Below, piece by piece: positions 2,348 to 26,852 of a stretch of 32,000 nucleotides of DNA (position 1 is the stretch's first letter; every line of letters starts with the position of its first letter). The notes below the pieces were generated by a model. The model was not told the DNA's origin, made no database searches, and was given only the letters and a program-made list of their open reading frames with translations. Origin of the DNA: Zestosphaera tikiterensis (lineage in GTDB: Archaea; Thermoproteota; Thermoprotei_A; Sulfolobales; NBVN01); assembly GCA_003056265.1 (NCBI GenBank), contig NBVN01000002.1, forward strand, positions 180,001-212,000, in the 5' to 3' direction. The position numbers and the translations under genes are program-made.

Positions 2348-2533
2348 TTAAGCTGGGTAGTCCTCAGGAACTTTAGCTCTGAAGTACTTACCTGTCTCTG
2401 GACTCTTGAATAACCCTATCTTAACACCTTTCCTACCCTTAGGCGCTAAGGTCCATACCTTCTCAGGCACTAACTCAACGTCCTTACCTGTTGTTGGGTC
2501 TTTAACTGTTACCTTCTTCTTTGGGGTGGACAT
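2348..2533 (-). CDS. cren7: Chromatin protein Cren7
   Basis: [61 protein letters not shown] is near-collinear with Sulfolobus Cren7 as I remember it. I trimmed the start to the ATG at 2533, because the track start at 2542 is a GTG three codons upstream. Confidence 0.9.
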
Positions 2534-2792
2534 GGTTATCACGTCAATAAAGATATGAATTCTGACACTCTTAAACTTTACTTGAGTTCTTCACAAAATG
2601 CTCGGGTTTTCATTGAAGGTTTCCATCATTTTAATTGTTGAAATACTTCAAAGTAAGTTTAAAGTTTACTGCTGTAGCCTCATGAACATGCGCATTTCTT
2701 TACTTGTTTAAATCAACCTACGATTAACTAAATAAAATGCTTTATCTTTTTAAGCTTATATGAAGTTTTAACTAAAATCGCTGAGGTGAAAC

Positions 2793-3512
2793 ATGTTGAA
2801 TAAGTTACTGCTTTTTGTTGATGTTGATGGGACTTTAACTATAGATAGGAAGACCTCCGCCATAGATCCGGAAGTCATTAACGTACTTCGTGAGTTAACG
2901 TTGGCTGGCGTGGAGGTTGTGTTAATATCTGGTAATTCACTACCTGTTTTAAGAGGTCTCTCGCTCTACTTAGGTTTAAGCGGTAAAGTAATTGCTGAAA
3001 ACGGTGCGGTAATCTACGTAGATAAACCTAAGGTAGTTTGCGAAGGTTGTGAGGATTGCGACGTAGTGTATAGGTCGTTACTTAACTATAAAGACATCTT
3101 TAAGGATGCTTGGCAGAATATGTTTAGGTTTTGTGAGAAAGCGCTTGAGTGGGTTGGAGATGAGGAAGAAGCTGAAGCAATTGCTAAGCAGCTTGTTAGA
3201 GAATTGAATTTAAACACAGTTGAAATAACGTCTAGTGGATACGCGCTGCATATCCACCCACGTAATTGCAATAAAGGTAGGGGGATAGCAGAGTTCATTA
3301 AGGAAACGTCGTCTGAAGGTTTAAAAACAATATGTGTAGGTGATTCCGACGTAGATATACCTATGAAGAATGTATGCTCACTTTTAGTAGCTGTAGGTAA
3401 TTCAGACCCGGATTTGCTTAAGGTCGCTGACGTCATTACTAAAAACCCCTCCTCTAAAGGGTTTATAGAGATAGCTATGGAAATCTTGAAGAACTTGAGG
3501 GACCAATACTGA
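2793..3512 (+). CDS. HAD-IIB family hydrolase, archaeal phosphoglycolate phosphatase-like
   Basis: 239 aa. HAD motif I is DVDGTLT, motif II is ISGN, motif IV is GDSDVD, and the archaeal PGP-like segment VIAENGAVI is present. Confidence 0.75.
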   Translation: MLNKLLLFVDVDGTLTIDRKTSAIDPEVINVLRELTLAGVEVVLISGNSLPVLRGLSLYLGLSGKVIAENGAVIYVDKPKVVCEGCEDCDVVYRSLLNYKDIFKDAWQNMFRFCEKALEWVGDEEEAEAIAKQLVRELNLNTVEITSSGYALHIHPRNCNKGRGIAEFIKETSSEGLKTICVGDSDVDIPMKNVCSLLVAVGNSDPDLLKVADVITKNPSSKGFIEIAMEILKNLRDQY

Positions 3513-3547: not shown

Positions 3548-5281
3548 CTACCTCGTAGACGCGGTTAAGTCGATAGGCATTCCTTTAGAGCCTGCTAACC
3601 TGCAGATAGCCTCGCCCCTTCTTAAGGATGTGCAGTAATAGCTTACGTCCTTATCTTCAATCCTCACGTAACGTTTTACATGCTTCCAATAACTTAAGTC
3701 GTTAGAACCCATAGCTACGAAAAGTCCGGCATTACCAACTATCACCTCACCAAGGCTTATTAAGTCTTGAGGATGTTGTGTTGCTATCCCAATAATCAAG
3801 CCGTAACTTCTTAAATACCTGATTAAACCTTCTACCTCATCACGTAACTTCGTAGAGTATATCCAAGCTTCATCAAATACTAAAAACTTAAGCGTGTCTG
3901 GGTTGTGTGGGATTTCGTTAACGCCTCTAAGGAGAAGAGCTTTTTTAACGCTTTTAAGTAATGATAAAACAGCTAAGTTAAGAACATTAACGTTTGAAAA
4001 GAAGGCCTTACTTAAGTTTAGAATTAAAACTTTATCTTCATAACCATTTAAGAAAAACCTCAGCCGATTAAACAGAGGCTCACCAACCTCATAGATTGAG
4101 AGCTCGCTTAAGACTTTACTTAGTTTAAACCTTATATAGGGATCCCTAACTAAAGCTAGGTTTTGAATAGCGTTCAATACATAATTATCGCATGAACTTA
4201 GCGAATATGTAAGCAATTCGTTAAGGGCTGAAGCAACTTCCTCGCTTAATGCGTAAGCGTTAGTTATTAAATCCGTTATGGAAGATGCCTTAACCTCTGA
4301 ATATTCGTCTTGAACTAGATTACATAAACCTAAAGCTATGTCATTACCTAAAGTCAATACCTTATAAGGAACTTGCCTTCTACTCAACCTAGTTGAGTAT
4401 TCATTCTTAATATCAACAATCAACGAGGGGATTCCATGAAGTCCGTAAAAACGTTCCACGAGTTCTACGAAGAACTCTGTTTTTCCGGAACCGGTAGGAC
4501 CTACGACAACTATATGTGGTGATACAGCATTATCTACGTTCCAGAAAACTAAGGTCTTCCTTATTAGATGTGTACCCAGTAAAACCTCAACACCTTCGAA
4601 ATTACCGCGTACTTCGTTAAATCCATCGCTAAGCATAAACGGGAGTAGCATAAAAGAGGCTGGGTTAAGAGTCATCAACGTTAGATTAACGCTTTTAAAT
4701 ACGCCTTTAAAAAGCTTAGTTAGATTTTTCAAGCTGTTAAGTTTGTTATTGCTGACTACCGTCTTTACTCCTAAACTATTCAAGCTCTTAACTAAAGCCT
4801 CTACTTTAGAGTTTAAGTTCGCATATGCTTTACTTGAATCCTCACCGCATTCCTTCAGTATAAACTCCGTTTCTATCTTCAGTGGAGGAAAGCCCTTTAA
4901 AGCGATATCCCGTATTTTCCTTAATATTCTTAACCGGCTTCTCAAGGCTTCATTAGCTGGATTACTATTCAACACTAGTTCTAACGTCTCTATCCTTCTA
5001 TTAAGCTTCTCTATGAAGTCCTCATTCCTCACAGGGCTTATTAAACTACGGATCTCAATTGAGAAGCCTAAGTTAATGCTGTTAAGGTAGCTTAACATGA
5101 AATGTTGAAGGTCTTGAGGATCTAGGTCTAGGAGTGAAACGGGTAGATCAACAACTTTTATAACTTTCTCATAGCATTTAACGTCGGACCTTCCTTTAAC
5201 GACCTCCTTAAGCTTGACGAACCTACGTATGATCCACTTAAAATAATCTCTACTTAACCTACGCTCTATCCTTAACAACAT
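3548..5281 (-). CDS. VirB4/HerA-like P-loop ATPase (FtsK-HerA superfamily), last gene of the pilus-like operon
   Basis: 577 aa. The N-terminal ~250 aa are helix-rich. The Walker A context is VSPHIVVVGPTGSGKTEFF, followed by LIVDIKNEYS (DUF87/HerA-like). Walker B is LVFDEAW, the DEAW typical of VirB4/TraC/TrbE. A downstream IGIATQHPQDL matches the TQ..D motif of conjugative and FtsK-like ATPases. Its start overlaps the upstream gene by 23 nt. Confidence 0.7.
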   Translation of the reverse strand: MLLRIERRLSRDYFKWIIRRFVKLKEVVKGRSDVKCYEKVIKVVDLPVSLLDLDPQDLQHFMLSYLNSINLGFSIEIRSLISPVRNEDFIEKLNRRIETLELVLNSNPANEALRSRLRILRKIRDIALKGFPPLKIETEFILKECGEDSSKAYANLNSKVEALVKSLNSLGVKTVVSNNKLNSLKNLTKLFKGVFKSVNLTLMTLNPASFMLLPFMLSDGFNEVRGNFEGVEVLLGTHLIRKTLVFWNVDNAVSPHIVVVGPTGSGKTEFFVELVERFYGLHGIPSLIVDIKNEYSTRLSRRQVPYKVLTLGNDIALGLCNLVQDEYSEVKASSITDLITNAYALSEEVASALNELLTYSLSSCDNYVLNAIQNLALVRDPYIRFKLSKVLSELSIYEVGEPLFNRLRFFLNGYEDKVLILNLSKAFFSNVNVLNLAVLSLLKSVKKALLLRGVNEIPHNPDTLKFLVFDEAWIYSTKLRDEVEGLIRYLRSYGLIIGIATQHPQDLISLGEVIVGNAGLFVAMGSNDLSYWKHVKRYVRIEDKDVSYYCTSLRRGEAICRLAGSKGMPIDLTASTR

Positions 5282-7499
5282 CGAATAACACCTTACTTAA
5301 GGTAAAGCCTTTAACTAGCATAAACCTAACCACATCTTTAACGGGTACTTCATATACCTTAAGGTTTTCGATAAACCCTGCTGGAATAGAAAACACGTAG
5401 ATACCGTTAGATAAGATCTCCTTAAGTGAGGCAGTGACCTCTAGAAAACCTTCATCGCCGTAGGAATGCTTTAGTAAAGCGCCACAAGCGATCACGGTTA
5501 TTTGAGGGTTATTAGATTTATAGCTAAGCTTAAGCGTACATAACTTAGCATCGCATGTAACGTCGATAAAGTTAAGCTCTAACGCAGAGTCTTTAGGTAA
5601 GGTAAAAACATAGTCAACGCATCTAACCCCGCCACGCTTGGCGTTTCTTACTTCAAAACCTAACGCATTATTTCTTACAACATCAACTTTAGGTAAGCAT
5701 CTAACGACATGGGTTTTAACCCAAATGTAGCCTTCGTAAGTTAAGTATTCGTCAATCACTATCGGCGGTTCGCAATCTTCAACGTCAACACGCACACCAC
5801 TTAATACCTTACCCCCGCAAATTACGCGTAAGGGGACTCCAGCACTAGTCGAGATACTTAACACGCCGTTTTGAAGTTCCTCTAGCCTTAAAGTAGTTGG
5901 TGGTTCCTTAACTTCTCGACAGTTATTAAACTCTACAGTGAATAATCCTAAATCTTGAATAACCCCATCAAAAAACTCCATCGATACTTTAAACTTAAGG
6001 AAGTTAGACCCGCTTTTAATAACTTCCTTAACGTTTAAGTCAGCGTTTACTAAAACATCACTATCGTTTATTACGTTAACGTGCGTTATTTTCATACCTG
6101 GGCTTAAACCAGTTATCAAGACTTTAGGGACTTCAGGGAAAGTTTTACTATAGGTTAAAGAAAGTAGCATCTTAAAGTTGGAAACGCCGTCTTTAAGCTT
6201 CCCATTTACGCTATAGCTGCAGTCCTTAACAACCACCCCCTCAAGAACCAAAGGTTTTGAAGTTATTTGGAAAGCTTTGGAGAACGTTCCTATAGGTGTT
6301 TTAAGTGCCGCAACTACATCTATAGGACTTCCGAACTCTTTAGGTTTTAAATGTATTACTTTTGAATTACCTTTAAGGTCTTCTCTGACTATGCTTACGT
6401 TACCGTTAAAGCTTATCGAAAACCATTCATTCCAAGGCTTTACTTCCACCTGTGCGTAACTCTCGCTAGAGACGTAATTCTTAATTACTGATATTTCAGG
6501 TGTTATTAAACCTTTCGTGTTTAGTAACGTTAATCCATCCTTAACCACGCAGAGAACTAAATCATTAGCTATTGGAATGCATGAATATGCTTCAACGTAA
6601 GCTACGTTTCTATTATCAACGTTTATTAACGACCACGCCATCCCTTTGGTTTTGAAAACTACTACATTTCTAAAGCACGTTAGGTTCTCTACTTTCACCT
6701 CATTACTTAACTTAAGTAGTAGGTGGTCTTTAAGCAAACAAACACCTTCCTTAGAGTTGACAACTATATCCCCTTCGTAACAGCAGAGAGAGCCGTATTC
6801 AACGCTTAAAGGGAATATAGGCTCGTATAAGTCCTTAACGTGCTTAACTATTAACACACCGTCAAAGAAGTAATTGAAGTTCCCGCAACTTATAAGCGGT
6901 TGCAACTCACAAAGAACTTCATAGGCTTCCTCACTAGTTAAAGAAACTGAGAAGCATCTATCTTCACCTTTAACCACACATATGTTTTTAGAGCAGATTA
7001 CACTTTCAATATCTGACGCTTTTATCACGTGCTCTTTATAGGATCCTGTCAACAAATCTAGCATAAGAACATAGCATTTCCTACCTCTGCAGGCGGTTAC
7101 CACAAGCAAGTCGTTAAAGGTGAAATGCTTGATTCTCCCAGGTCTAACGACTCTATCCTTAACGAATTCATAATAACCTTCAGAATTTTTACCTACGCAT
7201 ACATTTAAAACTCCGTCGAAGAGAGCGTACCTACTTAGCCTTTCAGAACATACGCCTAACCTACTTACGTCATCACTTAATTCAAAACTTACGCGACTTA
7301 TTAAATCAAATTCTAAGTTCTCATTCACTTTAAATATTGAACGTGTGGAATCGCTAGATAAAACTACTAACACAGGTAGGTAATTAAGAAGTCGTAGGTA
7401 AACATTTCTATACGTAACTTTCATATTAAGTAAGTTTTCTAAAATATCCCAGCTTACAAACCTAATTATCTCAGGCAATACCAACATCTTAAATAACAC
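5259..7499 (-). CDS. Large cysteine-rich protein of unknown function, with a propeller-like repeat region plus a beta-rich C-terminal half
   Basis: A 746-aa uninterrupted ORF that overlaps both neighbours (11 nt upstream, 23 nt downstream). I recognise no family. It has 24 Cys, 15 of them in the first ~320 aa, and about 7 blade-like repeats with 35-43 aa periodicity between residues ~90 and 330. I see no convincing signal peptide or TM helix. Confidence 0.75.
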   Translation of the reverse strand: MLFKMLVLPEIIRFVSWDILENLLNMKVTYRNVYLRLLNYLPVLVVLSSDSTRSIFKVNENLEFDLISRVSFELSDDVSRLGVCSERLSRYALFDGVLNVCVGKNSEGYYEFVKDRVVRPGRIKHFTFNDLLVVTACRGRKCYVLMLDLLTGSYKEHVIKASDIESVICSKNICVVKGEDRCFSVSLTSEEAYEVLCELQPLISCGNFNYFFDGVLIVKHVKDLYEPIFPLSVEYGSLCCYEGDIVVNSKEGVCLLKDHLLLKLSNEVKVENLTCFRNVVVFKTKGMAWSLINVDNRNVAYVEAYSCIPIANDLVLCVVKDGLTLLNTKGLITPEISVIKNYVSSESYAQVEVKPWNEWFSISFNGNVSIVREDLKGNSKVIHLKPKEFGSPIDVVAALKTPIGTFSKAFQITSKPLVLEGVVVKDCSYSVNGKLKDGVSNFKMLLSLTYSKTFPEVPKVLITGLSPGMKITHVNVINDSDVLVNADLNVKEVIKSGSNFLKFKVSMEFFDGVIQDLGLFTVEFNNCREVKEPPTTLRLEELQNGVLSISTSAGVPLRVICGGKVLSGVRVDVEDCEPPIVIDEYLTYEGYIWVKTHVVRCLPKVDVVRNNALGFEVRNAKRGGVRCVDYVFTLPKDSALELNFIDVTCDAKLCTLKLSYKSNNPQITVIACGALLKHSYGDEGFLEVTASLKEILSNGIYVFSIPAGFIENLKVYEVPVKDVVRFMLVKGFTLSKVLFDVVKDRA

Positions 7500-8949
7500 C
7501 TAAGAGGTTCAACTCCAACATAGTTATCGACGGCAAGAACGTGTTAGTAAGGTCTTCAAACACTACGTATGATGCGTAGCATGAGTAGAAAATTGACGTG
7601 ATGATTATGTAGGTGGTTATTACGGTGTTGGCTTGATGGATTATGTTAATAGTTGCTGATTGCAGTAGAGGTAATAATAAAGCTAAAGCCACTATAACGG
7701 AATTAGCGAGTGCTACAGCTTTAAACGATCTTAACGCTTCGTTAACAACCTCCTGCAACTTACTTAAGACTTCCCTACTAATAACACCTAAGCTTAACCC
7801 CTTACTTAAGCAGTAGAAGACGAAGCTTGCGACCCACGACCTACTAACGGGTTTTTGCTTTCGTAACGTCAACTCAAGAGGTGAGAACTCAAAATCTAGT
7901 TCAGAAGCCTCAACAGCTTTCTTTAAAGAGTCGAGAGGGTTTATACTGATTGATGACACGCCTGACGCTAAATCTAAGAACTTACTTAATCGACTTAACT
8001 CCCTAACGTTTTTTAAGAAGTCCTTAGTTACGTAGATTCCAAACATAAGTAAAGGCAGGCTTAAAACCAGTAAGTTAAACTTCTTGAACAGTAGGTAGTA
8101 TGTTATCGTTGGGATAGTTAGTAAGGGTAGGAGGGTTAAGTTCTTACGTGACGTAATTTTCTCGAACTTTAGATATTTAGGATATTTAGGTAAGGCGAAA
8201 AAAGAGATAGGCGCTAAAACGATGGTTAAAGTAAATACTTGATTAATGAAATTGCTTCCTAATAACGTAGTTAAAGGCACTACCACGACTGGTGTGTAGC
8301 CTAACAAAACAGCCACAACTAAGGATACGGTGGCTCTAGCTTTGATAACGTTGTAAGTGTTTGTTCGTACTTCATCAAGTATTCGCTGGCCTAAGCCCTG
8401 CATCCAGAAGACGTAGGTTCCAGAGTTAGTAGCTAGTAAGTAGTCTGTTAATACGCTATTAACTATTTTAGACTTAACCCACTTACGATACTCATTAACA
8501 CCTTTAACGATTCCTAAGAAGTCTACTAACCTACGTAGTATGTTACTCTCACGACAAAGCTTTTTAAACACATTACACCAAGCACTTAAGTTTTGAAGAT
8601 CTTTGAGAAGGTCTGAATCTTTAGATAAAGACACATAATTGGAAATCAAGAAATACTTGAATTCCTCTTCTAACTCTCTATGGTAACTTCTGGATTCCAT
8701 AATCAAATATACTGGATACAGAATAAACGGTAGTAACGCTGAAGTTAACGAAGCTAAGGCTATGGTAGGTAACGATGTAATCTTAAGTAGGAAGTGCATG
8801 CTTAAGATAGTTACTGTCAAGAAAGATAACGACGTAATTGAAATCTTCTTCATTAAGTATCTGTTAACAAACCTTAACTCAACAGGTTTTCTAGCCATGA
8901 ACAATTCTCTATGTATAAAGTCAGCGTAAACATTAATTAATGACTTCAT
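7489..8949 (-). CDS. Polytopic membrane platform protein, FlaJ/TadC/PilC (T2SSF)-like
   Basis: 486 aa. The architecture is two hydrophobic helices, a ~120-aa soluble helical segment, a cluster of TM helices, a second ~90-aa soluble segment and a C-terminal TM cluster. This is the duplicated layout of archaeal pilus/archaellum platform proteins. It overlaps the upstream ATPase gene by 17 nt. The assignment rests on architecture and context, not on motifs. Confidence 0.65.
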   Translation of the reverse strand: MKSLINVYADFIHRELFMARKPVELRFVNRYLMKKISITSLSFLTVTILSMHFLLKITSLPTIALASLTSALLPFILYPVYLIMESRSYHRELEEEFKYFLISNYVSLSKDSDLLKDLQNLSAWCNVFKKLCRESNILRRLVDFLGIVKGVNEYRKWVKSKIVNSVLTDYLLATNSGTYVFWMQGLGQRILDEVRTNTYNVIKARATVSLVVAVLLGYTPVVVVPLTTLLGSNFINQVFTLTIVLAPISFFALPKYPKYLKFEKITSRKNLTLLPLLTIPTITYYLLFKKFNLLVLSLPLLMFGIYVTKDFLKNVRELSRLSKFLDLASGVSSISINPLDSLKKAVEASELDFEFSPLELTLRKQKPVSRSWVASFVFYCLSKGLSLGVISREVLSKLQEVVNEALRSFKAVALANSVIVALALLLPLLQSATINIIHQANTVITTYIIITSIFYSCYASYVVFEDLTNTFLPSITMLELNLLGVI

Positions 8950-10258
8950 GCTGTACTAACCTCGTAAAACGCTGAGTAATTTCTAGATGTGACTTACCTG
9001 CTTTCTTAGCTTTACTTAAGATTTCTTCAAAGCTGACGTCCTCTCCATACTCGTATAGGTTATTTAGCTTAACGACGTCTTCGGATATGGAGTATATAGG
9101 TTCGTCAACGCTAACCACAGCTCTTTTTAACCCCACCCCTTTAACGTAGTTTAATGTGATTATCAAGTCAAACATTGATACTTGATAGGGTGTTAAGCTT
9201 ATCGGTGGGGACATAAGCCTTAGTAAGGCTTCCTCAGCGCTACCGCCGTGGAAAGTTGTTAATGAGCCTAAGCCCATATTAATAGCTTGAACTAAAACCC
9301 TAGCTTCAGCTCCTCTAGTTTCACCTATAACTATAAACCTATTGACGGACGACCTTAAAGCAGCTTTAGTTAGGAAGAATTGATCTATAGGGCTTTCAAG
9401 ATTCCAAGGTGATGTAGGCACTACATACTTAACCCAACTGCTGTCGTTAGGTATGTCTATCTCGGGCGTGTCTTCAATTATACATACCTTCCAATTCTTA
9501 GGTATTAACTCGTAGAGTAGCGCCTTAAGTAATGTTGTCTTACCTGAGCCAGGCGGCCCCACTATTATTACAGAGCCTCTATTCCTTAAAACATAGTTGA
9601 CTAACTGAACCACAGCCTCTTTAACCATACCATCATTAATTAAGTCCTTCAAACTTACGTAAGTTTTAAGCTTCTTTCTAATGGTTATTTCGCCTTTACT
9701 ATCCGCTATATCCGGAAGAACTAAATGTATGCGATGCCCACCATCTTCCGCCGGAAGATTAGCGTCTACTATAGGACTTGCCTTAGTTATTAACTTGCCT
9801 GCTCTTTGCGCTAACACACTTAAATGCTCGAGGAAGTCATTCATATCCTCTATGACTATATTCGTTTTAATGTAATCAACGTCCGGATCGGATTTAACGA
9901 TTAAAGAATGCCTAACCCACACAAACCCAGGACCGCTTATAGAGATATCCTCTATATATGGATCGTCTATTAAGACCTGCAACTTCTTATATTTCATCTC
10001 CTCACGTAATGTGTAGGCTATCTTAAGCTCGTTGGGATTTAATCTTAACTTTCTCTTAATTACAGCAGCTGCGTTTTTAACGTAGCTATACATGTTACTT
10101 TCTTTAGCGCTTATTAAAACCTTACCTAACTCCTCCTTCAATACGTTACTATATGGTTTATCAACGCTGTTAGTAGCTATGTACTTATAGTCTCCGGACT
10201 CCTCCTTAACTATAATTATGTTGAAGGTGCCGACTTTATATGAAGAAACTATACTCAT
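8933..10258 (-). CDS. Type II/IV secretion family ATPase (FlaI/PilB/VirB11-like pilus assembly ATPase)
   Basis: 441 aa. Walker A is IIVGPPGSGKTTLL, the Asp box is IIEDTPEI, Walker B is FIVIGETRG and the His box is LTTFHGGS, all in canonical order. A GGTG Shine-Dalgarno-like element lies ~9 nt upstream of the ATG. Confidence 0.9.
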   Translation of the reverse strand: MSIVSSYKVGTFNIIIVKEESGDYKYIATNSVDKPYSNVLKEELGKVLISAKESNMYSYVKNAAAVIKRKLRLNPNELKIAYTLREEMKYKKLQVLIDDPYIEDISISGPGFVWVRHSLIVKSDPDVDYIKTNIVIEDMNDFLEHLSVLAQRAGKLITKASPIVDANLPAEDGGHRIHLVLPDIADSKGEITIRKKLKTYVSLKDLINDGMVKEAVVQLVNYVLRNRGSVIIVGPPGSGKTTLLKALLYELIPKNWKVCIIEDTPEIDIPNDSSWVKYVVPTSPWNLESPIDQFFLTKAALRSSVNRFIVIGETRGAEARVLVQAINMGLGSLTTFHGGSAEEALLRLMSPPISLTPYQVSMFDLIITLNYVKGVGLKRAVVSVDEPIYSISEDVVKLNNLYEYGEDVSFEEILSKAKKAGKSHLEITQRFTRLVQHEVIN

Positions 10259-10302
10259 AGAAAAGCACCTTCACAAAATTTTATAATGTTTAAAAATATT
10301 TC

Positions 10303-10746
10303 TTACCTTAAGTTTACGTTAACGTTGAATTTACTGTTTAACGCGTCCACAACCTCAAACACTAACGACATAACATCACTAACGCTGTCTACGGTGATGA
10401 TGAATGTTTGCGATGTTCCTTGTTTTAAATTACTTCCACTACTACCTACTGCTGTATACGTAGCGTTTTCAACTGTCCCATCACTTAATACAGCAAATAC
10501 TTTAGATAGGGTAAAATCTCTGGAACTTCTATTACGTAAAGTTACTACGAATACCTGCTTCGTACCACTTACTTCCTTATGGTTTAAAATACCTTCAACT
10601 TCAGGTGTGAGGACGTAACTACTTACCCTAGAGGATTGCGATGTCAACCACCCTTGAAGAGCTAACGCTATAGGCACGGCTATAGCAACTAAAGTTAACA
10701 CTACGACTAAATCGCTCACGGCCTTATTCGCTTTAAACGCTTTCAT
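10303..10746 (-). CDS. Archaeal type IV pilin-like protein with a class III (PibD-type) signal peptide
   Basis: From the ATG at 10746 the protein begins MKAFKANKA/VSDLVVVLTLVAIAVPIALAL. That is a short basic leader, a small residue at -1, then a ~20-aa hydrophobic helix. A beta-rich Ser/Thr/Val domain follows, with NRS and NAT sequons. A TATA box ~30 nt upstream fits the 10746 start rather than the track start at 10788. Confidence 0.75.
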   Translation of the reverse strand: MKAFKANKAVSDLVVVLTLVAIAVPIALALQGWLTSQSSRVSSYVLTPEVEGILNHKEVSGTKQVFVVTLRNRSSRDFTLSKVFAVLSDGTVENATYTAVGSSGSNLKQGTSQTFIITVDSVSDVMSLVFEVVDALNSKFNVNVNLR

Positions 10747-10772
10747 TTTTAACACCCGTACTTTTTCAAGGG

Positions 10773-10781
10773 TATTTAAAA
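10773..10781 (-). promoter_or_regulatory. TATA box (TTTTAAATA on the minus strand) for the pilin-led operon
   Basis: It is centred ~31 nt upstream of the ATG at 10746, which implies a leaderless or near-leaderless mRNA. Confidence 0.5.
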
Positions 10782-10799
10782 GGTTCATATACCTTTACA

Positions 10800-10808
10800 T
10801 TTTAAAAA
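10800..10808 (+). promoter_or_regulatory. TATA box (TTTTAAAAA) for the divergent winged-helix gene
   Basis: It is centred ~29 nt upstream of the GTG at 10833 and lies back-to-back with the pilin TATA inside an 86-bp spacer. Confidence 0.5.
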
Positions 10809-10832: not shown

Positions 10833-11162
10833 GTGTATAGCTTGAAGGAGTTTAGACTTAGACTGAAGAAAATCTTAGAATCTATGGCTGGGAAGGTAGT
10901 CACGCCAGGCGACGTGGTGACTTTAACAGGTCTTCCAAGGTATGAAGTTCTAGCTACGATACATGTTTTAGAAGCTTTAAATTTCGTTGAGTTAATAAAT
11001 GAAAAAGGAAACTTTAGAATTTATAAATTAACTAACGCCGGTTTAAAACTTCTAAGAGTACTTGAGGAAATGTCTGAAATCGAGGTTGATATCCTTGCGA
11101 AACCCTCTGAGGAAATCCCAACACATACGACTTCAGCTACTGAAGCAACACAATCTAGTTGA
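10833..11162 (+). CDS. Small winged-helix (wHTH) DNA-binding protein, divergent from the pilus-like operon
   Basis: 109 aa with a GTG start. The segment VVTPGDVVTLTGLPRYEVLATIHVLEALNFVELINEKGNFRIYKLTNAGLKLL has the helix-turn-helix plus beta-wing pattern of MarR/archaeal wHTH proteins. The tail is acidic and Ser/Thr-rich. Confidence 0.6.
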   Translation: MYSLKEFRLRLKKILESMAGKVVTPGDVVTLTGLPRYEVLATIHVLEALNFVELINEKGNFRIYKLTNAGLKLLRVLEEMSEIEVDILAKPSEEIPTHTTSATEATQSS

Positions 11163-11974: not shown

Positions 11975-12277
11975 TTAATCAACGAATTTTATAAGTCCTA
12001 CTTCAGCAAGTTGGTTAAGTATTAACGTTACAGGCTCGCGTAATTCTTCCTCTGAAAGCGTAGCTTCTGGTGAGGCTTTAAGTTCCTCACTTATTTGATG
12101 AATTAACTCTTCAACGTTTTTAGTTCCTTCACACATTTGCCACACGTAATAAGCACTTAACGAGAGCGCGTATGTCCTCTCCTCATCTAAGCTCACTATG
12201 TAGTTTTCTCCTTCAACACCTAACTCAATGCCTTGCTTTAAAGGCTTCTTACTTTTGATTTCTTCAAAACCTAACAT
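11975..12277 (-). CDS. PqqD-family (RiPP recognition element-like) small protein
   Basis: I trimmed this to the ATG at 12277, because the longer track ORF would overlap ssb. The segments YALSLSAYYVWQMCEGTKNVEELIHQISEEL ... ILNQLAEVGLI match the PqqD pattern. The start lies 4 nt after the ssb stop. Confidence 0.7.
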   Translation of the reverse strand: MLGFEEIKSKKPLKQGIELGVEGENYIVSLDEERTYALSLSAYYVWQMCEGTKNVEELIHQISEELKASPEATLSEEELREPVTLILNQLAEVGLIKFVD

Positions 12278-12281
12278 GATA

Positions 12282-12770
12282 CTAACCTCCGAAGTCTTCC
12301 TCCTCCCCTTCTTCAGAGCTCTGCTCTCTTCTGAAGCCGCCTCTTCTAAACGGTCTGCGTGGTCTGCGAGCACCTCTAAACTCAGGTTTGAAGCCTTCAG
12401 GAGCTTTAGGGTAGTTATCAGGTATGGAATCTGCTTCAGGAACCTCACCGCTTTGAGACTCCACTATGTTTCCTTCACCGCCAACGTTTAACTGCACCGA
12501 ACCTTTAAACACGGTTGTCCAAGCATTCTTTATCTCTACTACATCACCTTCTTTAACCTTACCCGCTATGGCCTTACCCCATAAAGTCAGCTTAACCTTC
12601 CCTGAATCGTCACCTACAACTACTTCGCTAATAGTTCTAGTTCCAGACCTTGTGTTTATAGTTTTTGGTTGTTCTACCTTAATAACGCGAGCCACGAGGC
12701 TTACGTTATTCATATTTGGTTTTAGATCCATTACCTTTATCTTCGGTTTACCTACGTTCGATCCACTCAT
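12282..12770 (-). CDS. ssb: Single-stranded DNA-binding protein, crenarchaeal single-OB type
   Basis: The segment LKPNMNNVSLVARV...TRSGTRTISEVVVGDDSGKVKLTLWGK...KEGDVVEIKNAWTTVFKGSVQLNVG is collinear with Sulfolobus SSB. It has an RG-rich linker and an acidic tail (EEGEEEDFGG). A GGAGAGG Shine-Dalgarno-like element lies upstream. Confidence 0.92.
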   Translation of the reverse strand: MSGSNVGKPKIKVMDLKPNMNNVSLVARVIKVEQPKTINTRSGTRTISEVVVGDDSGKVKLTLWGKAIAGKVKEGDVVEIKNAWTTVFKGSVQLNVGGEGNIVESQSGEVPEADSIPDNYPKAPEGFKPEFRGARRPRRPFRRGGFRREQSSEEGEEEDFGG

Positions 12771-13820: not shown

Positions 13821-13928
13821 TGGTGGGCCCGCGGGGATTTGAACCCCGGACCACCCGGTTATGAATCCCGTAAGGCCTGAGTTTCAGGCGCTTATGCCGG
13901 GCGCTCTGCCTGGCTGAGCTACGGGCCC
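13821..13928 (-). tRNA. tRNA with anticodon CAT (elongator Met or Ile2), 31-nt intron at a non-canonical position (32/33), CCA encoded
   Basis: In the reverse complement: acceptor GGGCCCG/CGGGCCC, discriminator A, then CCA; D arm GCTC-AGCCAGGCA-GAGC; T arm CGGGG-TTCAAAT-CCCCG. The anticodon stem CCCGG/CCGGG encloses 38 nt. Removing 13865-13895 leaves the loop CTCATAA. The intron contains the hairpin GCCTGA-AAC-TCAGGC and a relaxed bulge-helix-bulge (bulges GCA and ATT around helix CCCG/CGGG). Confidence 0.85.
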
Positions 13929-23798: not shown

Positions 23799-25196
23799 CT
23801 AACCCTTCTTTAAAATACTAGCGCATTCCTCAACACAGCTGATTAAATCCTTCTCGTGTAGTTTCTTAATTCTCTCATTAGACCATATTAGAAGGTGGGA
23901 ACCCTTGTCAGGGTCGATTAAATACTTCAGTGAAGCAGTAGCTAAAAACGAGGTAACTTTATATATCTCTTCGTTTAAAGCAGTTGCGAATCTGAAAGTC
24001 GTTATTCCTAAGCTCTTCAGAAGGAAGAGTTGATTAGTTAAGTAGAACGAATACTTACTTATGTCGTGAGACATATGAATAAATTCTGGGACGTTAGCCT
24101 CCCAAAATATAATTACCGACGGTTTCAAAGCCTTAGCTAGCGAAAGCTCTAAAGCGTAGAGTTCGTCTACGCTATAGCTAGCCGGGTTTAAAGACTTCAC
24201 TTCAAAGTATGTCTTGATGATCTCCTCAGCTAAGTCTTTAGGAACTCCAGAGCTTATTAAAGCGTTTAAAGCGTTTCCAAACCACTCACTAGGTGATGAG
24301 CTGTAACTCACTATTAAGAGTTTACCCAACCTATTGAGTTTAGCTAGCGAAGCTAGTAAAGGCACCCACAACTGGTAGGTGGGCCTTACCTCATGAGCTA
24401 CGTAAACATAAGAACCTTTAGGTAAGTTCCCTAAAGACTCGCTTAAAGCTTTACACGGCATTCTTAAAGTTTCACTTGAGGGTGGGGGTACTTCAGCAAG
24501 TACTGGCGGGAACCAAAACTCAACGCCAAAACCCTCCCTTATAGTGTAGGGGACTTCAGAAACTTCTATCTGCGCCCCACGCATCTTAACTAAATGTGCT
24601 TTCCTCACAAGCAATCCATGGGTTTGCTCCTGTCTTAAAGTTATTAAAGCATCAGCAACGTACTCTACATCGCTGACTGAGGCATCACCATCGAGAATCT
24701 CAACAGTTAACACCAACACGCCCCTTAAAGCTTTAGATAACGTATATATGAAGTTCTGAAGCCATGCCCTCCTAGATATATCCGAAGCTAAAACCCTTAA
24801 AACAGGCGTTATAGAGTCGATAATTAAGATCCTAGCTTTCATTTCATTAACTACGTTAGTTATTAAGTTGAAGAGATCCTCAACATGCTCAAGAGTTCCA
24901 GGGATGGGCACGTTAATAAACTTCATTAAACCCCTATCCTCCAACTCTTGGAAGTTCATCCCAAGACCTAACATATTCGTGTAATGCTTTTCTTTAAACT
25001 CCTGCGTGGATATATAAACACATGGGTAACCCCTTGAAGCATTAATAAAGCAAATCCTAGAAGCTAAGGTTGTCTTACCGGTTCCAGGACCACCAACTAT
25101 AGCTACGATACCACCTAACTTAATAGCTGACGTAAACCTACGGTCTAACTCCTCAACACCGAAAACAAAATACTCGTTTAATCCCTCCACACCCAT
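23799..25196 (-). CDS. KaiC/RadA-like RecA-superfamily ATPase with a degenerate second domain
   Basis: 465 aa. The first domain has Walker A VGGPGTGKTTLA and Walker B ILIIDSIT. The C-terminal half has similar length and layout but no P-loop; the equivalent position reads YVAHEVRPTY. Confidence 0.75.
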   Translation of the reverse strand: MGVEGLNEYFVFGVEELDRRFTSAIKLGGIVAIVGGPGTGKTTLASRICFINASRGYPCVYISTQEFKEKHYTNMLGLGMNFQELEDRGLMKFINVPIPGTLEHVEDLFNLITNVVNEMKARILIIDSITPVLRVLASDISRRAWLQNFIYTLSKALRGVLVLTVEILDGDASVSDVEYVADALITLRQEQTHGLLVRKAHLVKMRGAQIEVSEVPYTIREGFGVEFWFPPVLAEVPPPSSETLRMPCKALSESLGNLPKGSYVYVAHEVRPTYQLWVPLLASLAKLNRLGKLLIVSYSSSPSEWFGNALNALISSGVPKDLAEEIIKTYFEVKSLNPASYSVDELYALELSLAKALKPSVIIFWEANVPEFIHMSHDISKYSFYLTNQLFLLKSLGITTFRFATALNEEIYKVTSFLATASLKYLIDPDKGSHLLIWSNERIKKLHEKDLISCVEECASILKKG

Positions 25197-25270: not shown

Positions 25271-25711
25271 TCAACCACACACAAACTCAACGTAGCTGTC
25301 AACGCCTTCAAAAATCTTAACTAAGAATTCATATCCCTTACCAACTAACGCTTTAGAAACTTCATCGCAGACATACTTAGCTAAGCATTCAGCAGTAATT
25401 AACGAACAATCTAAAGAAACTAAACGCGTTTTAAAAGGCCCTTCAAACCTAACTTTATTTAAGTCTGAAGCAGGTATTAGTAAAGAATAATCTAAAGACT
25501 TAACCAACCCCTCAATCAATTCCTTAAGCTTAAGGAAATCAACAACCCAATAACTGCTAACATCTAAAGAACCAGAAACACAGACCTCAACGCTGAATGT
25601 ATGTCCGTGAAGAAGTAAAGAACCGCCAACCGGTGTGTAGTGAGCTGAGTTAAAATAAAACCCACCAACACAATCACGAAACTTCATCACATTAACCACC
25701 TGACTTACCAC
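25271..25711 (-). CDS. 6-pyruvoyl-tetrahydropterin synthase / QueD (COG0720) family protein, atypical active site
   Basis: The Zn-ligand histidines are present (NSAH, LHGH), as are VVDF and SLDYSLLI. The Cys of the QueD Cx3HGH motif and the His of LDHxxLN are absent. An alternative ATG at 25687 would remove the 20-nt overlap with the upstream gene. Confidence 0.75.
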   Translation of the reverse strand: MVSQVVNVMKFRDCVGGFYFNSAHYTPVGGSLLLHGHTFSVEVCVSGSLDVSSYWVVDFLKLKELIEGLVKSLDYSLLIPASDLNKVRFEGPFKTRLVSLDCSLITAECLAKYVCDEVSKALVGKGYEFLVKIFEGVDSYVEFVCG

Positions 25712-26852
25712 CTCTAAATATCTTCTTCAAATCTTCAACATTCCAAGACATCTTAGGAACATACTCCTCCCACTTCCTATAGGGAATCGTGTACTTACCC
25801 GTAAAACTAAGTAACATAAGCCGAACCCTATCGTTAATTACCTCAAAACCCCACTCCATACCCAACAACTCAAGAAACTTAAGCAAATACTTCACAAGAA
25901 AGAACGGAGAAACAACAAAAACAACACCCTCACCCCTATCCAACCTTAAACCAGCACTAGCGAAAAGAGGATGCGTAACTAAACCCTCCAAAACACGAGC
26001 AACAGTAAAAACATCACGTGACTTAATAACAACCATGAAAGAACAGCCTAAAACCTCATCGTAAATAGGTAAGGTTGCTATCCTAACACCTCTAATAAGG
26101 TAAGGTATATGTTCTGAAGCATGCTTACGAACCTTACCCAACGGAATCCCTAAAGAACTAGCTATCTCACTTAAAGAAGCTAAAGGATCTTTCTCCAACT
26201 CCTTAATTATACCTAAATCAATAGCGTCAAATCTAACTCTACTCGCATCTTCAAGTCCTAACATTAACGAATTCCCTACATAATAATCAGAGAAAACCTT
26301 ATCCATATAGTTCTTCAATTTAACGAAGGAATCCTCACTCAACGCCTTAGATAAATCCATTAAACTATCAACTCCATATAGAGACGCTAACGTTCTGTTT
26401 CTAATTCTTTCATGAATCTCTATGACGTCGTTTACATTATTCGCAACCTCTGAAGGCAAATTACTTAACAGCTCAAAATCTTTAGGAACATAAAAAGAAT
26501 ATGCATACCCACTGGGTACGATTTCTGTAACACTTCTTAAAAATCTTAACTCAGCTTTAGATGCGAGCTCTTCTCTTGAATAATCCGTAATTATCATGGC
26601 TACTTTTAAGTTTAGTCTACTCATGAAATACTCTATAGTTAGATATAAGCTCTCATTTTGCCTTAGCTTATAAAGCAACTTTAACTTGTTGATTGCTGTT
26701 CTAGTATCTATGTTTAATTTCGTAGCTATATACTTAGCTATTTTAGACCTACCGATAACCCTTACACTGTAAAGGCTCTCTAGTAATCTTGGTTCAAGCA
26801 TCTTCTTCCCTAACCACAATATATTTTCTATGTTAATTCTTAAAAGAGGCAT
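25692..26852 (-). CDS. Two-module HTH protein (Lrp/AsnC-like HTH plus ligand-domain-like repeats), predicted regulator
   Basis: 386 aa. The second module shows a clear AsnC-type HTH (DAIDLGIIKELEKDPLASLSEIASSLGIPLGKVRKHASEHI). The first has a weaker HTH-like stretch (RSKIAKYIATKLNIDTRTAINKL). The function is not recognisable. Confidence 0.55.
   Translation of the reverse strand: MPLLRINIENILWLGKKMLEPRLLESLYSVRVIGRSKIAKYIATKLNIDTRTAINKLKLLYKLRQNESLYLTIEYFMSRLNLKVAMIITDYSREELASKAELRFLRSVTEIVPSGYAYSFYVPKDFELLSNLPSEVANNVNDVIEIHERIRNRTLASLYGVDSLMDLSKALSEDSFVKLKNYMDKVFSDYYVGNSLMLGLEDASRVRFDAIDLGIIKELEKDPLASLSEIASSLGIPLGKVRKHASEHIPYLIRGVRIATLPIYDEVLGCSFMVVIKSRDVFTVARVLEGLVTHPLFASAGLRLDRGEGVVFVVSPFFLVKYLLKFLELLGMEWGFEVINDRVRLMLLSFTGKYTIPYRKWEEYVPKMSWNVEDLKKIFRGGKSGG

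Follow-up and report, generated by a model that had tools for sequence, protein, structure and literature searches.

A five-gene operon of Zestosphaera tikiterensis links an archaeal type IV pilus machine with a CedB-like ATPase and a new protein family

Why should an operon for an archaeal type IV pilus also encode an ATPase of the VirB4/HerA superfamily and a large protein that matches no known family? The question is raised by a stretch of 32,000 nucleotides (contig NBVN01000002.1 of assembly GCA_003056265.1, positions 180,001 to 212,000; the whole of it is called the window below), which is chromosomal DNA of Zestosphaera tikiterensis, an archaeon of hot springs and a member of the Desulfurococcales and not of the Sulfolobales. 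Five tightly spaced genes occupy positions 3548-10746 of its minus strand. An earlier note, made from the sequence alone, had listed these genes with their coordinates, and both the open reading frames (ORFs) read from the sequence and the domain matches agree with it. Its first three products make up an archaeal type IV pilus machine of a simple kind: a single pilin of class III, an ATPase of the FlaI type and a polytopic membrane protein as their partner. An orphan protein and a soluble CedB-like ATPase follow. The most likely reading, to which we assign a probability of roughly 0.45, is pilus-coupled DNA transfer, with the functions of the Ups pilus and of the Ced DNA-import system brought together in one operon. 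What is new is the conserved combination of type IV pilus and Ced-type parts, together with a new protein family.

The last gene of the operon had been placed in the VirB4/HerA superfamily. This placement holds and can be made more precise, the best matches of the 577-residue product being to the CedB, HerA and VirB4 families. The protein contains the Pfam domains DUF87, HerA_C and AAA_10 and is made of an N-terminal alpha/beta domain and a C-terminal ATPase domain. It aligns nearly end to end with the NCBIfam CedB model (198 bits, E = 2e-58, model positions 72-577 of 590); on the CedD model it scores 26 bits and on the VirB4 model (TIGR00929) 16.7 bits, against a cut-off of 643. The Walker A (GPTGSGKT), Walker B (LVFDEAW) and ATQHPQD motifs are present, and they are invariant in its relatives. 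An AlphaFold2 model of the protein, computed from seven relatives, reached a predicted local distance difference test score (pLDDT) of 72.5. Its top Foldseek matches were the C-terminal domain of DndH, TrwK/VirB4 of R388, a VirB4 C-terminal domain and Sulfolobus HerA. The alignment of the predicted fold with R388 TrwK/VirB4 spans about 605 columns (E about 1e-11), and that with the C-terminal domain of Thermoanaerobacter VirB4 has a TM-score of 0.67; HerA and DndH score similarly. A CedB-type N-terminal membrane anchor is missing, with no transmembrane (TM) segment in the first 230 residues, and the same holds for the relatives that are linked to pilus genes. CedB orthologs devoid of a TM segment have been mentioned in passing (PMC11823120) and could include these pilus-linked proteins.

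The earlier note had also described the 441-residue ATPase as FlaI-type and the pilin as class III, and both descriptions stand. The ATPase matches the Pfam family T2SSE (PF00437; E = 5e-23, 81.8 bits for a cut-off of 24.9), and its NCBIfam scores decrease from FlaI (182 bits) to TadA (127), BasE (111) and VirB11 (107). Among PDB sequences, the nearest solved structure is FlaI of S. acidocaldarius (E = 1.9e-36). All 10 homologs compared keep the Walker A motif, Asp box, Walker B motif and His box unchanged. Since the catalytic motifs are thus invariant in each of them, both ATPases of the operon are likely to be active. Class III pilins are recognized by the motif [KR][GA], then the cleavage site, then a hydrophobic helix of about 20 residues. 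The window pilin has this organization, with the signal-peptide motif ..NKA/VSDLVVVLTLVAIAV (the slash indicates the site of cleavage), a hydrophobic helix and then a beta-rich, immunoglobulin-like domain. Orthologs carry RKG/VSDLVVIL, and the pilin of the divergent loci described below as clade 2 carries KG/LSELVV. This clade-2 homolog gives a weak, near-full-length match to Pfam Pilin_N (E = 0.24), and marginal colinear matches relate the pilin to the solved archaeal pilins 8rey and 8fk7. At one locus (L003, positions 2517-3040), which belongs to a relative of 73% identity, the ORF of the pilin has no more than 82 residues, and the part for the signal peptide (MKTFKVGKAVSGLVVVL...) is still readable upstream in a different frame. 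Either a frameshift or an error of assembly accounts for this, or the gene is a pseudogene.

The third protein, of 486 residues, contains 6-8 hydrophobic TM segments according to a hydropathy scan; they form pairs that flank two soluble, helical domains (about 105-125 residues). Its gene lies, in all the loci compared, directly 3' of the assembly ATPase gene, which it overlaps or abuts. From this topology and position, the protein is presumed to be a platform of the FlaJ/TadC type. The internal duplication characteristic of T2SSF was not detected when the N-terminal half was aligned with the C-terminal half (hhalign P 0.15). No prepilin peptidase (PibD/FlaK, A24 family) is encoded in the 32-kb window.

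The large protein encoded between the platform and CedB-like genes deserves the name of orphan that it had been given. No match was found in Pfam, NCBIfam, PHROGs, PADLOC or PDB sequences, even when a 20-sequence profile was used. It has neither a TM segment nor a signal peptide by hydropathy scan, is predicted to be all-beta, and is rich in cysteine: 24 residues (3.2%), with 22-23 in the orthologs, compared to 0.2-1.3% in most neighbouring proteins. About ten cysteine positions are conserved in the family, in closely spaced pairs that could be disulfides or metal sites. Members of the family are colinear at 17-26% identity, and the orphan is homologous to a 798-residue protein of clade 2 (hhalign 96.7%, E = 3e-10). 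A HMMER profile search of 1.84 billion proteins returned 19 representatives, and those with a name all come from uncultured Desulfurococcales/Thermoprotei (terrestrial springs, Guaymas vents) or from Zestosphaera; word-indexed searches with the orphan retrieved a 69% relative alone. An AlphaFold2 model derived from a two-sequence alignment had a pLDDT of 36. The density of N-glycosylation sequons varies from 0.13% to 1.7% among orthologs and is therefore uninformative as to localization. We propose that the orphan is a cytoplasmic adaptor between the platform and the CedB-like ATPase.

Related loci were collected through contigs that encode CedB-like homologs, and then by a metagenome scan anchored on the winged-helix protein whose gene adjoins that of the pilin. 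Complete copies of the first group, clade 1, number eight (the window, L001, L003, L004, L006, L014, L019 and L020); they are distinct in sequence and have the same gene order, and another four contigs (L010, L012, L013 and L018) agree with it as far as they reach. In the winged-helix-anchored scan, the pilin gene was adjacent in nine of the ten matches, the tenth (L015) being cut at this place by the end of the contig, and every sufficiently long contig carried the full gene set. The clade-1 loci also share their neighbourhood, with SSB, PqqD and DUF123 genes upstream and metallophosphoesterase, Cren7 and HAD genes downstream. Despite this conserved synteny, the proteins of the module are only 24-57% identical to those of the window. 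Between the window and L001, identity is 24% for the orphan, 32% for the platform and 33% for the CedB-like protein, as against 57% for the T2SSE ATPase, 79% for TFB and 80% for SUI1. The rates of the first three proteins co-vary, and these proteins diverge much faster than the last three.

Clade 2 (L021, L022 and L023) is far more diverged. It has the same order of genes, for a pilin, a 501-residue T2SSE ATPase, a 484-residue platform and the 798-residue orphan homolog, and its CedB-like gene is split into an ORF of 196 residues for the N-terminal domain and one of 379 residues for the ATPase (7382-9140 in L021 and L023). The context is different, since these genes lie between a gene for an ERCC4/XPF-type nuclease and that of threonyl-tRNA synthetase, and the winged-helix regulator is missing. 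The persistence of the order in a new context argues for selection on the gene set, and not for inherited synteny alone; that the set has survived relocation is the strongest evidence for functional coupling. Since the arrangement recurs in eight complete loci that differ in sequence, in four more contigs as far as these extend and in another, divergent clade, the gene set and its order are far beyond chance. In the contigs whose length allows a judgement, the orphan family was seen only with pilus genes. The adjacency is therefore not peculiar to the genome of Zestosphaera tikiterensis: it is kept across many lineages and in two chromosomal contexts. The operon is best explained as a chromosomal one, vertically inherited in a Desulfurococcales lineage.

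The junctions between the five genes are those of an operon, as the earlier note had perceived, with spacings that range from -23 to +44 nt. Three of the four were described correctly. The pilin stop (10303) is separated from the ATG of the assembly ATPase (10258) by a 44-nt gap that contains a GGTG. The ATPase and platform genes overlap by 17 nt (platform ATG 8949, ATPase TAA 8935-8933), and the orphan and CedB-like genes by 23 nt (ATG 5281, TAG 5261-5259), with a GGTG 8 nt 5' of the ATG. The 11-nt overlap claimed for the platform and orphan genes exists if the orphan starts at GTG 7499, and becomes a 1-nt gap if it starts at ATG 7487, which lies in the context 'TAAgATG' with a GGTG 9 nt 5'. 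The latter is probably the true start, since it matches both a public 742-residue model (P0015) and the ortholog start MLVLPE. A GGTG is found 5' of the pilin, ATPase, orphan and CedB-like starts, and a GAGGT 5' of the platform start. For the pilin, the start at 10746 is favoured over that at 10788 because a TATA-like box (10781-10773) falls inside the longer ORF, which makes this ORF unlikely. From these features we infer that all five genes are carried by one transcript.

Table 1. Genes of the operon and the divergent neighbouring gene, with the basis of each assignment (positions in the window)
Feature	Position	Strand	Basis
Type IV pilin precursor, 147 aa	10303..10746	-	class III signal-peptide motif
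FlaI/TadA-type (PilB-family) hexameric assembly ATPase, 441 aa	8933..10258	-	Pfam T2SSE, NCBIfam FlaI
Polytopic membrane protein, 486 aa, presumed FlaJ/TadC-type platform	7489..8949	-	topology and position
Orphan, 742 aa (746 aa from GTG 7499)	5259..7487	-	no family match
Soluble CedB-like ATPase, VirB4/HerA superfamily, 577 aa	3548..5281	-	NCBIfam CedB
Winged-helix (MarR-like) protein, 109 aa, divergently transcribed	10833..11162	+	conserved neighbour, weak Pfam MarR_2 match

No paper describing this arrangement was found in a literature search that did not extend to the 2016 Ced paper, in line with the earlier note, which did not recognise it as a named system. The 2016 census of archaeal type IV pili lists no HerA/VirB4-type partner, and its Desulfurococcales loci are either simple or accompanied by untraceable minor-pilin-like extras; in the 2019 study of the superfamily of type IV filaments (TFF), VirB4 was used only as an outgroup. 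The Ced system (CedA, CedA1, CedA2, CedB, CedD; Sulfolobales, Desulfurococcales, Acidilobales) belongs to the same broad taxon, and CedB is the nearest family to the 577-residue protein over both the N-terminal and the ATPase domains, with a predicted fold that resembles VirB4. The resemblance has its limits, in that the protein lies far below the CedB cut-off and is devoid of the N-terminal TM anchor. Furthermore, its gene sits with those of a class III pilin, a FlaI-type ATPase and a presumed platform, whereas in the Ced/Ted papers the partners of CedB are VirB6- and VirB2-like and the system is encoded separately from Ups. The Ups operon (upsX-upsE-upsF-upsA-upsB) likewise combines a type IV pilus ATPase, a platform and class III pilins with a domain-less cytoplasmic protein of about 80 kDa. 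It differs in its gene order, in having two pilins where the present operon has one and in its lineage, and also because the CedB-like ATPase is encoded here within the operon, whereas cedB forms a separate locus in Sulfolobales.

Bacterial systems offer more distant parallels. In bacterial type IV secretion systems, too, a VirB4-family ATPase, an ATPase of the T2SSE/VirB11 superfamily and a polytopic membrane protein are encoded in one pilus-building operon. However, the pilin here is of the type IV pilus class III and not VirB2-like, the assembly ATPase is FlaI-type with an N-terminal domain and not a VirB11, and the locus has no homolog of VirB3/6/8/10 or VirD4. Bacterial competence systems (ComG/type IV pseudopilus, ComFA, ComEC) also associate a type IV filament with a separate cytoplasmic ATPase, but this is an analogy only: ComFA is a DEAD-box protein whereas the ATPase considered here is of the VirB4/HerA type, and no ComEC-like channel is found in the locus.

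How could the five proteins work together? In the reading that we favour, pilus-coupled DNA transfer, they would form one envelope machine. The pilus would contact a partner cell or DNA, the orphan and/or the platform would hold the soluble CedB-like hexamer at the membrane, and this motor would drive DNA across the membrane, which would be analogous to the joint action of competence pili and a cytoplasmic translocase in bacteria. The earlier note had likewise inferred a pilus-coupled translocation apparatus with two motors, for DNA or protein. A tether formed by the orphan would thus replace the TM anchor of canonical CedB. That the substrate would be DNA is suggested by three considerations. 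CedB, the closest named family, has been characterized solely as a DNA-import ATPase (PMC9905601, PMC11868833, PMC11823120). The orphan would have a parallel, by analogy, in UpsX, a cytoplasmic, domain-less protein of about 79 kDa that is encoded in the Ups pilus operon and promotes DNA exchange but not piliation (PMC3892339). Finally, Ups is reported to be absent outside Sulfolobales, which leaves room for another pilus. A bolder version is that of a single hybrid nanomachine, in which a type IV pilus and a VirB4-type translocase would share one platform and be bridged by the lineage-specific, cysteine-rich adaptor, making up a class, not recognised before, of systems by which archaea take up or exchange DNA; this version is tentative and on the unlikely side.

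Several observations weigh against pilus-coupled DNA transfer. Neither CedA, the VirB6-like component, nor CedA1, the VirB2-like pilin, is encoded in the window or in the flanks of the other loci (up to 10 kb on each side). The score of the window protein on the CedB model is far under the equivalog cut-off (NF041017, 700 bits), as are those of its pilus-linked relatives (212-250 bits), whereas a true CedB with an N-terminal TM segment (P0007, locus L008) reaches 782 bits. To judge by these scores, the protein is a CedB homolog and not an equivalog; its function may therefore have diverged from that of CedB. The HMMER profile search that returned the 19 representatives of the orphan family detected no Sulfolobales protein, and the parallel with UpsX is one of analogy. 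The platform, which the earlier note had called FlaJ/TadC-like, has the topology and position expected of it, but neither the window protein nor nine relatives matched a T2SSF, FlaJ, BasF or CedA profile in Pfam, NCBIfam or PDB sequences. Lastly, the 'ANTTTC' promoter motif of the UV/Orc1-2 response lies 5' of the pilin TATA box only in the window and in L003, and not in the other 12 intergenic regions.

The main rival of pilus-coupled DNA transfer assumes that the second ATPase serves the filament and moves no DNA, which has a lesser but real chance of being correct. It can be formulated in three ways. The CedB/VirB4-like hexamer might extract or insert pilins with a VirB11-family partner, as VirB4 does for VirB2; it might power retraction, PilT being, to our knowledge, absent from archaea; or it might form an accessory ring similar to that of FlaH/FlaX in the archaellum, with the orphan as scaffold. 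VirB4 and VirB11, a member of the T2SSE family, do act together in the biogenesis of type IV secretion pili, and the assembly ATPase of the window obtains, as mentioned, 107 bits on the VirB11 model. Moreover, the locus contains no gene for a channel or for DNA processing, and archaeal machines of the type IV pilus kind are known to take on another P-loop ATPase, for example FlaH or the KaiC-like proteins (PMC4858521). The pilin, on the other hand, is class III, and for such pilins a FlaI-type ATPase and a platform suffice in Ups, Aap and Bas, while the closest family of the second ATPase, CedB, is a DNA-import motor. We also know of no type IV pilus that uses a VirB4-family ATPase. A role in protein secretion or surface display, in a two-ATPase machine resembling the bindosome or a type II secretion system, is quite improbable: type IV pilus-type systems do include such variants as the Bas bindosome, and the assembly ATPase has a BasE score of 111 bits, but no candidate secreted substrate or binding protein is encoded in the locus, the orphan has no signal peptide, and VirB4/CedB-type motors are not known to us in systems of the type II secretion kind.

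The orphan and CedB-like genes might alternatively constitute an independent two-gene module, such as a HerA-plus-effector defence system or a DNA repair system, that merely lies beside a pilus operon. HerA-family ATPases are indeed often paired with a large partner (Sir2-HerA, DUF4297-HerA, NurA-HerA), as seen among the Foldseek matches, the CedB-like protein gives a weak match to HerA_antiphage (31 bits, for an equivalog cut-off of 800), and the clade-2 loci adjoin an ERCC4 nuclease gene. Yet no locus has a space of any size between the stop of the platform gene and the start of the orphan gene, which overlap or touch, and the association with pilus genes, to which the orphan family is confined in the contigs long enough to tell, survives the move to another chromosomal context. 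The PADLOC matches are weak and of a generic P-loop nature, with none for the orphan. We consider such a module improbable. An integrated conjugative or other mobile element is very improbable. VirB4-like ATPases are hallmarks of conjugative elements and a tRNA gene is located at 102-176, but no mark of a mobile element was found in the window, its genes including no integrase, relaxase or TraG, and the flanks are of a housekeeping nature (SUI1, TFB, SSB, Cren7). The GC content is unremarkable and even throughout the window, no relative was found in viral contigs, and chromosomal synteny is kept across loci in which the module proteins have diverged to the extent described above.

The genes that surround the operon in the window are those of a chromosome. 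On one side are found tRNA-Asn, SUI1, TFB, the metallophosphoesterase, Cren7 and a HAD hydrolase; on the other, DUF123, the PqqD-like protein, SSB, a methyltransferase, a topoisomerase, the thermosome and an aspartyl-tRNA synthetase-type enzyme. The winged-helix protein, encoded divergently from the pilin gene and always adjoining it, is 51-83% identical in all clade-1 loci. It matches Pfam MarR_2 weakly (E = 0.0036) and is a probable local regulator of the operon. A TATA-like box (10800-10808) lies 25-33 nt before the GTG start of its gene at 10833, a spacing that suggests a leaderless transcript. Some further features of the window are worth recording. A match of 105 nt to the Rfam tRNA family (13824-13928, minus strand, 53 bits), not called by ARAGORN, probably marks a tRNA gene with an intron. 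In its listed form, the PqqD-like ORF (11975-12448, minus strand) overlaps the SSB ORF (12282-12770, minus strand) by 167 nt; its true start is probably internal, since the orthologs have about 102-106 residues. At 23799-25196 and 25692-26852, both on the minus strand, a gene for a KaiC-like ATPase is found beside ORFs with winged-helix domains, 13 kb from the operon; KaiC-family ATPases have been proposed as regulators of archaeal type IV pili (PMC4858521).

Exchange of DNA in Sulfolobales needs both Ups and Ced. The operon described here, present in two deeply diverged clades of Desulfurococcales, offers a concrete and testable model for a physical coupling between a pilus and a Ced-type motor, and is a candidate for the means by which these hyperthermophiles exchange DNA. 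With it, a VirB4-family ATPase also joins the accessory components that archaeal type IV filament systems possess; none is listed in the 2016 census or in the 2019 analysis. Zestosphaera tikiterensis is cultured, which makes tests of piliation, cryo-electron microscopy and transcript analysis feasible. According to a citation of St John et al. (2019) in PMC11467010, it serves in culture as host to the nanoarchaeote Candidatus Nanoclepta minutus, and it is pure speculation that a pilus-linked translocase in a host of DPANN archaea could bear on the contact between host and symbiont. If the hybrid machine exists, it would unite, as an evolutionary chimera, the lineages of type IV filaments and of type IV secretion, and a single operon would do what Ups and Ced do separately in Sulfolobales.

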